Of a DNA stretch of 17,976 nt, positions 1,415-15,314 are shown one piece after another. Location: the NCBI RefSeq assembly GCF_003334385.1, contig NZ_QOWN01000062.1. One strand, written 5' to 3'. The stretch comes from Escherichia coli (GTDB lineage: Bacteria > Pseudomonadota > Gammaproteobacteria > Enterobacterales > Enterobacteriaceae). The number at the start of each line of letters is the position of its first letter. The first letter of the stretch is position 1. Made by a program: the position numbers and the translations under genes. The notes beneath the pieces are model-generated. The model saw nothing but the letters and a program-made list of their open reading frames with translations, had not been told where the DNA came from and made no database searches.

Positions 1415-1472
1415 AAAAAGGGCGGCAGAGCAGTCACGGAGTAAAACTGATACCGCCAAACGTCACCAGAAA
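1415..1472 (-). ncRNA. dicF: DicF small RNA (ftsZ-targeting antisense sRNA) with its 3' hairpin and U-run
   Basis: Reverse complement of 1415-1472 reads TTTCTGGTGACGTTTGGCGGTATCAGTTTTACTCCGTGACTGCTCTGCCGCCCTTTTT, matching DicF as I recall it, ending in a GC-rich hairpin (GGCGG...CCGCC) plus T-run. Lies between the ydfC position and dicB as in the dicB operon. Confidence 0.9.
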
Positions 1473-6967: not shown

Positions 6968-7301
6968 ATACAGCGAACTCCATTGGTTTAGTTGGATATT
7001 TACTGTGCTGGACAAAAACGGTTTGCGGGGAAATCTTAGTTAAGTAGAATGACTGCGGGTGCTTGAGGCTATCTGCCTCGGGCATGGACACCAACGGCAG
7101 ATAGAGAAAAGCCCCAGTTAACATTACGCGTCCTGCAAGACGCTTAACATTAATCTGAGGCCAATTTCATGCTAGACACATGTAGGTTAGCCTCTTACGT
7201 GCCGAAAGGCACGGAGAAGCAGGCTATTGTTAACACCAAGCTGTAATGTCCCCTTTGAACCATTCTAAAATGTCCCCAGACAATTCTCTGGGGGATTTTT
7301 C

Positions 7302-8615
7302 ATGATCAAAGAGACTGTTACGATGAGTCATAAGGAACTCCACCGACTTCAGATTATTCAGGAACAAGCTGCGGCACGCATTGGCATTTCTATTCGGCAG
7401 GTTAAACGTCTGGTGCAACGGTATAGAAATGAAGGGCCTTCTGGTCTGGTTTCCCACCGACGTGGAAAGCGTCCTAATAATTCCTTTTCTACTGAATTCA
7501 GAGCAACAGTAATTTCACTCCTCAAAGGCCGTTACGCTGATTTTGGACCTACGTTTGCGTGCGAAAAATTGCGCGAGATACACGGTTTATCTTTATCCGT
7601 TGAAACTCTCAGAAAGTGGATGATAGAAGAGGGGTTATGGCGTGAACGCCGTCGTAAAATTGCCCGTATATATCAACGCCGCATGCGACGACCATCTTAC
7701 GGTGAACTGATCCAGATTGATGGCTCACCTCATGACTGGTTTGAAAATCGAGGCCCCAGATGTACACTGATCGTTTTCATTGATGATGCCACCAGTGCGT
7801 TGATGGCGTTGCGTTTTGTGCCTGCTGAAACAACCCGGGCTTACATGGAAACCCTCCGGGGTTACCTTAATGATCATGGCGTACCGCTCGCTCTCTACTC
7901 TGATAGACACAGTATATTCAGGGTAAATAACCCAGAGCGGGAAGGTGAGCTGACCCAGTTCACTCGTGCGATAAAGACACTGGGCATCGAGCCAATCCAT
8001 GCCAACAGCCCGCAGGCAAAAGGGCGGGTAGAGCGCGCCAATCAGACACTACAGGACAGGCTGGTCAAAGAAATGCGGCTTCAGAATATCAGTGATATTG
8101 AAACAGCAAATGCATGGTTGCCGACCTTTATTGAAGCCTATAACAACCGGTTCGCTACGTCGCCTCGTACTACTGATAATGCTCATCTTGATGTGCACCA
8201 TTCTGAAGAGGAACTGGGTTATATCTTCAGCCTACAGGCGAAGCGCGTTCTGTCTAAAAATCTCACTTTCCAGTACAAAAGCAGTGCGTTTCAGGTACGC
8301 AGTGAGGGCCGGGGATATCGACTTAGGCATTCGGTTGTTACTGTATGCGAGAACTTTGACGGTGAAATTAACGTTCTGTATGACGGGAAAGCGCTGGGCT
8401 GGGAAAAGTATGTTGATGGCCCGGAGCCTATACCACTGGATGATGAAAAGAGTGTCCATGAACGAGTGGATAATGCCCGTATTGATTTACGCTCAAAATA
8501 CTATGTTAAACCTAAAGCTGACCATCCCTGGCTTACGCGCCGAACGCAAAGTCATCAGCAAGTTAAGCCCCCGAAGTTACCTAAAAAGAAGCCTGATCCC
8601 GATAAAAAAGATTGA
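7302..8615 (+). CDS. IS-element DDE transposase (integrase-core/rve type with N-terminal HTH), 437 aa; family uncertain (IS481-like or ISNCY-like)
   Basis: Track ORF with HTH-like N-terminus (IGISIRQVKRLVQRY) and candidate DDE residues in IQIDGSPHDW, IVFIDDATSA and GRVERANQTLQD. Ends of the element could not be defined. Confidence 0.8.
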   Translation: MIKETVTMSHKELHRLQIIQEQAAARIGISIRQVKRLVQRYRNEGPSGLVSHRRGKRPNNSFSTEFRATVISLLKGRYADFGPTFACEKLREIHGLSLSVETLRKWMIEEGLWRERRRKIARIYQRRMRRPSYGELIQIDGSPHDWFENRGPRCTLIVFIDDATSALMALRFVPAETTRAYMETLRGYLNDHGVPLALYSDRHSIFRVNNPEREGELTQFTRAIKTLGIEPIHANSPQAKGRVERANQTLQDRLVKEMRLQNISDIETANAWLPTFIEAYNNRFATSPRTTDNAHLDVHHSEEELGYIFSLQAKRVLSKNLTFQYKSSAFQVRSEGRGYRLRHSVVTVCENFDGEINVLYDGKALGWEKYVDGPEPIPLDDEKSVHERVDNARIDLRSKYYVKPKADHPWLTRRTQSHQQVKPPKLPKKKPDPDKKD

Positions 8616-9018
8616 AACCAAGATCGATTCGGTTGAGTGCATATCCATTCATAGGGTAGATTCTTAAGTCGCGTTTCTGGTGTTCATTTTCGGGTGGTTT
8701 GTTACTTGTTTTACCGGGGATATGCCAGAAACGCGCTGAGTCAGTCTGGGCGGTGCGCGTAATGAGGCGTTATGGTAAATAGCCTATGCTAATGTCCGCT
8801 AAGAGCAAGAAGCGGAAGTTGGCAGTTTTGTGGACTGTCCCCACAAAAGTGACTACAGAAATAGTTGCAATTCATAATTGATCATGGGTTGTCAGTTAAA
8901 CTCGTGGCGATTTAAATAGACTAATTGGGAGTGCGTCCATTACTTATATCTTGTAATGTTAACTATCAGAAATGATACAAAGATAATATGTCTTTAAAGA
9001 AAAGGCTGATGGCGAAAA

Positions 9019-9037
9019 GTGGCCCGATGAGGGCCAC
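9019..9037 (-). terminator. Candidate intrinsic terminator downstream of flxA
   Basis: Hairpin GTGGCCC-GATGA-GGGCCAC just 3' of the flxA stop; on the minus strand it is followed by a short T-rich tract (TTTTCGCC). Confidence 0.35.
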
Positions 9038-9051
9038 AATACGGCTGTCAC

Positions 9052-9384
9052 TTAGACGTAAATATCAATGGTGCCAGCGGTATTTGTATCGTCTTTTTTC
9101 TCTTCTTTTTTATCAGGCTGAACTGTCGCGTCTTCATTCTTTTTCTCTGCCTGCTGCCTTAACAACTGCTCCAGTTGAGCCCAGAGGCTTTCAATTTGCT
9201 TCTGTACCAATGCAGCCATTTCTTTTTTCTGCTGTGTCGTCATCCCCTCTTCCGATGAGATTTTCCCAAGCTTTTCAGTCAGCACCTGAATTTGTCTTGT
9301 GATTTTGGCTATTTCTGATGTTCCTTCCGGGGCGGAGTTGTTTGAAATAACGGTTGAGGTATTTCCCTGAATTGTGACAGACAT
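9052..9384 (-). CDS. flxA: FlxA (110 aa)
   Basis: Track ORF MSVTIQGNTSTVISNNSAPEGTSEIAKITRQIQVLTEKLG... matches FlxA as I recall it. AAGGAG Shine-Dalgarno and a sigma-28 promoter lie upstream. Confidence 0.85.
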   Translation of the reverse strand: MSVTIQGNTSTVISNNSAPEGTSEIAKITRQIQVLTEKLGKISSEEGMTTQQKKEMAALVQKQIESLWAQLEQLLRQQAEKKNEDATVQPDKKEEKKDDTNTAGTIDIYV

Positions 9385-9407
9385 AGATTTCTCCTTTTAA
9401 AAAAGCA

Positions 9408-9434
9408 CTATCGGCATGCACAAAAAAATCTTTA
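9408..9434 (-). promoter_or_regulatory. Sigma-28 (FliA) class promoter for flxA
   Basis: Minus strand reads TAAAGATT - 11 nt - GCCGATAG, against the consensus TAAAGTTT-N11-GCCGATAA, about 25 nt upstream of the flxA start. Confidence 0.6.
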
Positions 9435-9586
9435 ATCGTATTTCTTGTGTCATTAATTGTTTGATGTTCAGATTGTTTTCCTCGCGGGCTGGCGCGCCTC
9501 AGAAAGTAAAGCTTGTTGACAGGGGTAAACGTTCGGCAATAATTTTCTGCCGCATGCGGGTGTTGCATAAAACGTGTTACGTTCCT

Positions 9587-9892
9587 TTATCGACAGGTCA
9601 GGTCACCGCTCACCCGCCGACGAGAAAGCAACACTGACATGCTAAAGCAAAAAATAGATGAATAAGTTGAGTTGTGCATATGTAGCCTGACCGTCACAAA
9701 GTATATGGTGTCTGTACCAGTAAGATGATGGCCGGACTCTTTAAAAACGAGCTGACCTGCACAATACAGGATGGACTTAGCAATGGCTGCTCCTGGCACA
9801 AAGCGGACAGTGATCACCGTTCTTACGACTACTTTCTGACTTCCTTCGTGACTTGCCCTAAGCATGTTGTAGTGCGATACTTGTAATGACAT
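9587..9892 (-). CDS. ORF at the ydfV position (101 codons); coding status uncertain
   Basis: Track ORF MSLQVSHYNMLRASHEG... between flxA and relB; same length as ydfV in K-12 as I recall. No motif support. Confidence 0.2.
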   Translation of the reverse strand: MSLQVSHYNMLRASHEGSQKVVVRTVITVRFVPGAAIAKSILYCAGQLVFKESGHHLTGTDTIYFVTVRLHMHNSTYSSIFCFSMSVLLSRRRVSGDLTCR

Positions 9893-10514: not shown

Positions 10515-10670
10515 ATGAAGCAGCAAAAGGCGATGTTAATCGCCCTGATCGTCATCTGTTTAACCGTCATAGTGACGGCACTGGTAACGAGGAAAGACCT
10601 CTGCGAGGTACGAATCCGAACCGGCCAGACGGAGGTCGCTGTCTTCACAGCTTACGAACCTGAGGAGTAA
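10515..10670 (+). CDS. hokD: HokD (RelF) Hok-family membrane toxin, 51 aa
   Basis: Manual translation MKQQKAMLIALIVICLTVIVTALVTRKDLCEVRIRTGQTEVAVFTAYEPEE; GGAGAAG Shine-Dalgarno. Under 60 aa, so absent from the ORF track. Confidence 0.9.
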   Translation: MKQQKAMLIALIVICLTVIVTALVTRKDLCEVRIRTGQTEVAVFTAYEPEE

Positions 10671-11826: not shown

Positions 11827-12126
11827 AAAAATTCCTTAATACTGATAACTTGGCGCACTATACACACGTTCCTGAAGAAAGCTATAGTTTTTTGATGGGG
11901 TTGAAGATGGCTGGATGTCTAAAATAAACATTGCTTCATATGTTCAACTATGCGTTAATGATTGCGTCGGTTTGAAGAACAGACGATATACGAAGTAGTT
12001 TACTAAAGCAGTTCTCATTTCAGGTGTTATTCACTTATTCCTTCTTTGAGTCTCTCCAATTAAGTACGAAGTCGTTTCTGTTATGCAAACCATTTATGCC
12101 GAAAGGCTCAAGTTAAGGAATGTAGA

Positions 12127-12342
12127 ATGTCAAATAAAATGACTGGTTTAGTAAAATGGTTTAACGCTGATAAAGGTTTCGGCTTTATTTCTCCTGTTGA
12201 TGGTAGTAAAGATGTGTTTGTGCATTTTTCTGCGATTCAGAATGATAATTATCGAACCTTATTTGAAGGTCAAAAGGTTACCTTCTCTATAGAGAGTGGT
12301 GCTAAAGGTCCTGCAGCAGCAAATGTCATCATTACTGATTAA
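12127..12342 (+). CDS. cspB: Cold-shock protein CspB (71 aa)
   Basis: [71 protein letters not shown]. Long 5' UTR containing a TGCCGAAAGGC box, as in the csp family. Confidence 0.9.
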
Positions 12343-12624
12343 AATTCATCGCTCGTCTGTATACGATAACGAAGAAGGCTGATGCCTGAGTAGAGATACG
12401 GACAGAGTAGTGAATATTGGATCTCTTTAATAAAAAGTAAGGAGGTCCAATACATGAAACAATGGCCAGCATATTTGGCAAAATCTTAATCAGGAAAAGT
12501 ATGCTAACCATTGTGGTGAAGTGCAGGTTTGCTGCATGAATAGTTTTACAGCAGAAGCTAACTGCTGGCATGGCAAAACAAAGTGCGTAAGTGGATGACT
12601 CCCACAAAAAGCACCACAATCTCA

Positions 12625-14651: not shown

Positions 14652-15013
14652 GGTAATATTAAATCGGAACATTTACATCGCGGAATGTAAAATTTAAATA
14701 AAAAGGACTCTTCCATGAGCCAAAATTCCTGAAATCTTAAGGGTAAGATAAAAGGTCTTAATCAGAATGACACGTTTTATTAATAAATAAAGCTATTCTT
14801 TCATTGCTGTGTTTTTCTTTACAAAAGTAATCCTTGCTATGGGTGGTTAATCATGCGTTAATGGTGTTCTGGTTTGTTACAAATTTATCTGAAGCAGTCA
14901 TTGTTATAATTTTATTATTTGTACCTCTTGAGATTTCCTTGTTGGTTTTTCTCTCTGATATTTTTTTTCGGACCATTCTGCCCAAGGGCTAATTTCTTCA
15001 AAAGGTAATAATT

Positions 15014-15226
15014 ATGTCTAACAAAATGACTGGTTTAGTGAAATGGTTTAACCCTGAAAAAGGTTTTGGTTTCATCACGCCGAAAGATGGCAGCAAAGAT
15101 GTGTTTGTCCATTTCTCAGCAATTCAGAGCAACGATTTCAAAACATTAACTGAGAATCAGGAAGTTGAATTTGGTATTGAGAACGGACCTAAAGGTCCTG
15201 CCGCTGTTCATGTAGTGGCGCTTTGA
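15014..15226 (+). CDS. cspI: Cold-shock protein CspI (70 aa)
   Basis: [70 protein letters not shown]. Confidence 0.88.
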
Positions 15227-15314
15227 GGTAGACAATATTACAAACCATATTCACTTTAGATGCCCGTGTTGTCATGGTTCCCAGTATAGAACATCATCTT
15301 TTGATGTTTCTGAC

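Follow-up and report, generated by a model that had tools for sequence, protein, structure and literature searches.

In the flagellar cascade, FlhDC activates fliA, whose product is kept inactive by FlgM; export of FlgM through the finished hook-basal body releases FliA. Class 3 (late) flagellar promoters, among them those of fliC, tar, motA, flgM, tsr and yhjH, are FliA-dependent and share the layout TAAAGTTT-N11-GCCGATAA, which is the sigma-28/FliA consensus that was used for scoring here (PMC2859248). The flxA gene of the Qin prophage is under the same control. As cited by Fitzgerald et al., it was first described as FliA-dependent by Ide and Kutsukake (1997, Gene 199:19), whose title calls it 'dispensable for motility development'. 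[quoted passage not shown] 2007, PMC1935009). FliA ChIP-seq gave a fold-above-threshold score of 16 at flxA, with the 28-mer TAAAGATTTTTTTGTGCATGCCGATAGT as its motif (Table 2), and normalised RNA-seq values for the gene were 280 in motile MG1655 and 2 in the fliA deletion, a significant difference (Fitzgerald et al. 2014). The ydfV/flxA spacer also gave a peak (intensity 23.2) in a holoenzyme-only genomic SELEX screen (Shimada et al. 2017, PMC5493296). In independent later transcriptomes, flxA rises together with fliC, the che genes, tar and tsr. A 2024 listing of uncharacterised E. coli K-12 genes includes flxA. Conservation of the flxA promoter is not discussed in the 2014 FliA paper or in a bioRxiv paper on FliA promoter evolution.

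We analysed a window of 17,976 nt, the whole stretch of DNA at hand, which is a Qin-like lambdoid prophage of E. coli in a version other than that of K-12. A first-pass annotation, made from the sequence, had read positions 9408-9434 as a sigma-28 promoter upstream of flxA and had concluded that a prophage-borne gene is wired into the host flagellar regulon. The site is flxAp, the published sigma-28 (FliA) promoter of Qin prophage flxA. Both the observation and its interpretation are correct and already published, FliA control of flxA having been known since 1997; the FliA dependence of flxAp is textbook knowledge, so that confirming it adds nothing new. Our addition is a modest one, namely that a sigma-28 promoter appears to accompany the FlxA family in all 11 lineages sampled. 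The features of the locus are as follows.

9587..9892, minus strand: ydfV, 101 aa, co-directional with flxA, with its stop about 150 nt upstream of the -35 element (annotation)
9427..9434, minus strand: -35 element of the sigma-28 promoter, TAAAGATT, matching TAAAGTTT at 7 of 8 positions; equals the published flxA FliA ChIP-seq motif
9416..9426, minus strand: spacer of 11 nt, TTTTTGTGCAT, read from the sequence
9408..9415, minus strand: -10 element of the sigma-28 promoter, GCCGATAG, matching GCCGATAA at 7 of 8 positions, with the CGA core intact
9398..9402, minus strand: predicted transcription start zone, placed by the usual geometry of sigma-28 promoters about 6-10 nt past the -10 element
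9391..9396, minus strand: Shine-Dalgarno sequence AAGGAG, 6 nt ahead of the ATG, read from the sequence
9052..9384, minus strand: flxA coding sequence, 110 aa and stop, from the open reading frame list (RefSeq WP_001301033.1, FlxA-like family protein)
9015..9037, minus strand: tentative terminator-like hairpin, GUGGCCC-UCAUC-GGGCCAC followed by UUUU, starting 14 nt past the flxA stop

On the minus strand, which is also that of flxA, positions 9434..9408 read TAAAGATT-N11-GCCGATAG. The coordinates in the first-pass annotation were right, and pattern matching reproduced its count exactly, with 7/8 positions in each element (14/16 in all) around a spacer of 11 nt. The 16-position motif lies 23 nt upstream of the flxA ATG, and the published 28-mer, which is identical here, ends 22 nt before it. 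The -10 element is followed by TGCTTTTTTAA, AAGGAG, 6 nt and the ATG; most homologues, but not all, have a purine-rich GGAG or GAGG at a similar position. By the usual sigma-28 promoter geometry, the 5' UTR of flxA would be about 15-18 nt long. The assignment of the gene to flxA also held, as the coding sequence is 100% identical to K-12 flxA (b1566) and the protein matches Pfam PF14282 (E 2.9e-14; residues 7-101 to model positions 2-96 of 101). NCBIfam contains no model for FlxA or YdfV. The promoter is likewise identical to K-12 flxAp, without a difference, and over the surrounding 801 nt the window agrees at 100% with K-12 as well as with many further strains. At an identity of at least 99%, the region occurs in 1204 of 5426 complete E. 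coli genomes (about 22%), where it is annotated as flxA and ydfV. Downstream, the hairpin at 9037..9015 has a GC-rich stem of 7 bp, and its RNA folds with -18.1 kcal/mol (z = -2.27 versus shuffles). It was not called in a consensus terminator scan because its U run is only four long.

The strength of the match was assessed against the window and against known FliA sites. The motif is the sole match with three or fewer mismatches in the 17,976 nt; at this loose threshold, 0.29 matches are expected from shuffled windows, while at two or fewer mismatches the analytic expectation is 0.009 per window, counting both strands. Position-weight matrices (PWMs) were derived from the FliA ChIP-seq sites of Fitzgerald et al. 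(2014), with the flxA row left out, using two training sets (51 sites, and the 24 strong sites with a fold-above-threshold score >4). The leave-one-out score of the flxA site was 18.45 bits with the 51 sites and 20.98 bits with the 24 strong sites. Across analyses the score was 18.5-22.4 bits, with a lead of at least 7.5 bits over the rest of the window, in which the runner-up sites on both strands reached 10.9 and 10.4 bits. This score was attained in 4/200 shuffled windows by the 51-site PWM and in none of 200 by the strong-site PWM. From the exact score distribution, P was 1.6e-8 to 4.9e-8 per position, corresponding to a chance expectation of 0.0006-0.002 per window and 0.15-0.45 per 4.64-Mb genome. 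By the strong-site PWM, flxA ranks 10th among the 52 ChIP-seq sites, the other sites having been part of the training set. PWM scoring had been proposed as a check when the site was first noted, and it placed the site well above background.

Relatives of FlxA were sought at the protein level. A word-indexed search gave almost only near-identical E. coli FlxA, and the distant relatives came from an exhaustive representative protein search, in which full-length relatives were found at HMMER identities from 66% down to about 30%. DNA was compared for 11 FlxA-family lineages with 86% to about 31% protein identity. When the whole locus was scanned on both strands (1.3-18 kb), the top PWM site was in 11/11 a coding-strand site 22-31 nt ahead of the ATG, and the 11-nt spacing is kept within flanks that cannot be aligned. 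For a single locus, the top match would fall into that 10-nt slot by chance roughly once in 1000 cases. Seven lineages scored 17-22 bits; the other four, which are distant and have a weak -35 block, scored 8-13 bits, and FliA dependence appears less certain for these four chromosomal homologues. In an alignment anchored on the motif, the mean information per column was 1.60 bits in the -10 element, 0.94 in the -35 element, 0.63 in the spacer and 0.40 in the upstream flank, values in which the motif columns are inflated by an anchoring that the PWM itself had chosen. All 11 lineages have CGATA, and 10 of them the full CCGATA. We consider the rank-1 site at a fixed distance from the ATG to be a stronger argument than the conservation of columns.

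Five distant loci (L012, L013, L016, L018 and L019) have flxA-like genes at 2590, 162, 256, 3001 and 3001, respectively, whose products are about 31-36% identical to E. coli FlxA (alignment A1), and a FliA-like site lies 26-31 nt upstream of each ATG. These genes occupy a chromosomal slot that is conserved in other Enterobacterales, with the order gltX, flxA-like gene, divergent LysR regulator, SBF transporter and ligA; these clusters and a related one have members from Enterobacter roggenkampii, Pantoea, Erwinia mediterraneensis and an unclassified Enterobacteriaceae bacterium. In E. coli K-12, flxA occurs in the Qin prophage only. Copies at 64-86% identity are located in mobile DNA, either beside integrase and IS3-type transposase genes or beside traI. 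The cassette is thus found in unrelated contexts with a boundary near the promoter: DNA homology between Qin and the IS-flanked L006 and traI-linked L007 copies runs from window position 9444, 10 nt upstream of the -35 element, through the gene. Homology with L003 and L004 extends from about 9522 to 9041, and that with L009 begins only at 9395, downstream of the promoter, with a FliA-like site still present in L009.

The promoter was also followed in viral sequences. It is kept in 56/56 flxA viral contigs of IMG/VR, of which 48 are identical to the window promoter, two carry Enterobacter-type sequence at 86% identity, and six are one base off. Four of these six changes fall in the spacer; the other two affect the first or second base of the -10 element and give ACCGATAG and GTCGATAG, forms that are also found in natural FliA promoters (Fitzgerald et al. 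2014). The Qin-type promoter has four variant types in IMG/VR, and the three spacer-only variants keep the length of 11 nt. Among 50,697 GenBank phage records searched by tblastn, flxA was found in one only, the complete phage PhiR42_1, in which the promoter is intact.

Several other accounts of the site were weighed. It might be a chance resemblance without promoter function, as 0.29 matches arise per shuffled window at three mismatches and E. coli has many FliA-like sites that are intragenic or without transcriptional output (Fitzgerald et al. 2014). The expectation falls, however, to 0.009 per window at two mismatches and to 0.0006-0.002 by PWM, and the site stands on the correct strand 22 nt before an ATG, is bound by FliA in vivo, controls an RNA that drops from 280 to 2 without fliA, and is kept in 11/11 lineages of the family. 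The probability of a coincidental match is practically nil, and this account was excluded by the statistics together with the published binding and expression data. A second possibility is that flxA is transcribed mainly by sigma-70 polymerase or by read-through from ydfV, the FliA site being minor. The co-directional ydfV ends about 150 nt upstream, and a scan of the ydfV-flxA interval detected no terminator. Against this, a scan for sigma-70-like promoters on the minus strand between 8600 and 10200 found none, other lineages keep the FliA site behind entirely different upstream neighbours, and deletion of fliA almost abolishes flxA expression (280 to 2; 28-fold), so that under the conditions tested another source could contribute little. 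We regard a main contribution from such sources as very improbable. The assignment of a prophage gene to the host flagellar regulon is supported by the ChIP-seq, fliA-deletion RNA and SELEX literature.

The origin of the promoter is a separate matter. The term 'wired' in the first-pass annotation holds for FliA control; the comparison of loci suggests that the promoter came with the gene and did not evolve in the prophage. A true rewiring, in which the promoter arose by mutation inside the prophage once the gene was already phage-borne, would have been eased by AT-rich DNA (44% G+C in the window) and by the few substitutions that suffice to create such a site. Yet the distant gltX-linked chromosomal copies have a FliA-like site just as far from the ATG, independent mobile copies (on the traI-bearing contig and beside IS elements) carry a FliA site as well, and the DNA homology shared with two of these (L006 and L007) begins just upstream of the -35 element. 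We therefore consider rewiring within the prophage quite unlikely. The simplest reading of the sequences would be that the gene and its promoter are a single old unit, taken up by a Qin-like phage, a direction of transfer that we infer. Import together with the gene is more parsimonious than de novo origin in the prophage.

The prophage location of the gene, as first annotated, is borne out by its surroundings, a Qin-like lambdoid prophage of E. coli in which flxA is flanked by an ISNCY transposase and by ydfV-relBE-hokD. The closest relative of the window is strain SCU-104, with 99.8% identity in two pieces. The order of genes in SCU-104 is exonuclease, ydfD, dicB, ydfA, repressor, cro, YdaT-like and O-like genes, DUF977, methyltransferase, ISNCY transposase, flxA and ydfV (both on the minus strand), relB, relE, hokD, rem, cspF, cspB, lysis genes, cspI and nohA. 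Thus flxA and ydfV lie antisense to the early-right phage genes, amid other cargo. Compared with K-12 Qin, the prophage of the window still has cro, together with ydaT-like, O-like, DUF977 and methyltransferase genes, its ISNCY transposase is intact, and 2108 bp covering ydfU and most of ydfT are absent. The gap is at the 11126/11127 junction and is seen against SCU-104 (L020 11128..13235) and likewise against K-12; the missing segment takes in the final few bases of rem, then a small ORF, ydfU and the greater part of ydfT/quuQ, which is the Q antiterminator. This copy of the prophage therefore has no late-gene antiterminator.

Other elements of the window were recorded alongside. The intact ISNCY-family transposase (7302..8615, plus strand; 437 aa; NCBIfam NF033594, E 7e-137) is represented in K-12 by ydfW (49 aa), which corresponds to its C-terminal tail, the remainder being annotated as a truncated pseudogene in SCU-104. 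It is convergent with flxA, which lies about 440 nt past its 3' end. Just upstream of the transposase, 7057..7228 on the plus strand matches the Rfam sok antitoxin (RF01794, 104 bits), which points to a second hok/sok-type locus or remnant besides hokD (10515..10670). A sigma-70-like promoter close to consensus (TTGACA-16-AATAAT, 11/12) is present at 9516..9543 on the plus strand, opposite to flxA and about 80 nt upstream of the FliA -35 element, and is directed antisense through ydfV toward relB; by eye, its -10 part is not kept in the Enterobacter copy. RNA features expected in Qin were the DicF sRNA (1420..1471, minus strand; 76.7 bits) and cspA-type thermoregulator leaders ahead of cspB and cspI (11966..12358 and 14868..15253, plus strand).

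In its general organisation, flxA resembles a phage moron. It has a promoter of its own, is antisense to the early-right genes, lies near relBE and hokD cargo and is followed by a hairpin, and its homology boundaries coincide with the promoter-gene unit. Unlike in morons, an alternative host sigma factor takes the place of sigma-70 at the promoter, and the terminator is tentative. To judge from its own promoter and its orientation antisense to the cro-side operon, flxA is probably independent of phage operon control. With the class 3 promoters named above, flxAp shares the layout, a comparable PWM score and FliA dependence, whereas FlxA differs from the products of those genes in being without a known role in flagellar assembly or motility, and flxA is prophage-borne.

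Taken as a whole, flxAp is almost certainly a class 3 flagellar promoter read by FliA polymerase, in a cassette that was probably acquired with the promoter. The match, the geometry and the conservation were computed here, FliA occupancy and dependence are taken from the literature, and the start site, the terminator and the timing of flxA expression are the parts that we infer; none of the results contradicts this explanation. FliA would contact the -35 element TAAAGATT and the -10 element GCCGATAG, 11 nt apart, and transcription would start a few bases downstream of the -10 element to give a monocistronic flxA mRNA with a short leader. This mRNA would be translated from the AAGGAG ribosome-binding site and may be terminated at the 9037..9015 hairpin. 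As FliA is under FlhDC and the FlgM hold, flxA should be on with the flagellin and chemotaxis genes, and so would follow the late flagellar schedule and not the lytic programme of the phage. Promoter and gene would form a portable cassette (moron), most probably picked up by the Qin-like phage with the promoter in place.

The FlxA protein was modelled with AlphaFold2 from a 17-sequence alignment. Residues 1-21 are predicted to be disordered. A helical hairpin follows, with helices at 24-42 and 50-87 (pLDDT 80-90), and then a disordered tail, which is closed by a conserved C-terminal IDIYV/I motif. Foldseek comparison of the model with the PDB gave nothing at E <=0.001, only generic helical hairpins, so that the fold gives no function for FlxA. 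The N-terminal segment of FlxA also recurs in tandem within two giant proteins: 17 stretches of P0131 (3361 aa) and 7 of P0147 (2729 aa) match FlxA residues ~8-51.

FlgK, FliD, FliC, FlgL and FlgM are canonical late substrates of the flagellar export apparatus. In the exoproteome of an E. coli co-culture, FlxA is listed directly beside these five proteins (PMC6391000, Table 1). At 42 C, FlxA protein and mRNA move in opposite directions according to section 8 of a further report, which also describes a sharp fall in FlgM secretion into the supernatant (PMC6551532). Together, the exoproteome and the 42 C observations suggest that FlxA may itself be exported through the flagellum. All these hints are circumstantial, as are those from our own analysis, the family-wide FliA site and a predicted disordered N-terminus followed by a helical hairpin. 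A broader reading, in which FlxA would be an old Enterobacterales family of the sigma-28 regulon and a late substrate of flagellar type III export, and in which a phage captured the cassette from the chromosome, is tentative and in our view rather doubtful.

What we add to a known promoter, its conservation across the family and the export lead, is minor. Flagellar export offers a concrete lead for the uncharacterised flxA. The gene is a case of prophage cargo that runs on a developmental schedule of the host, late flagellar assembly, and not on that of the phage itself. If the promoter is ancestral and portable, the question would shift from how a phage gene came to be wired into the flagellar regulon to what benefit FlxA brings to motile cells, such that its control by FliA is kept everywhere.
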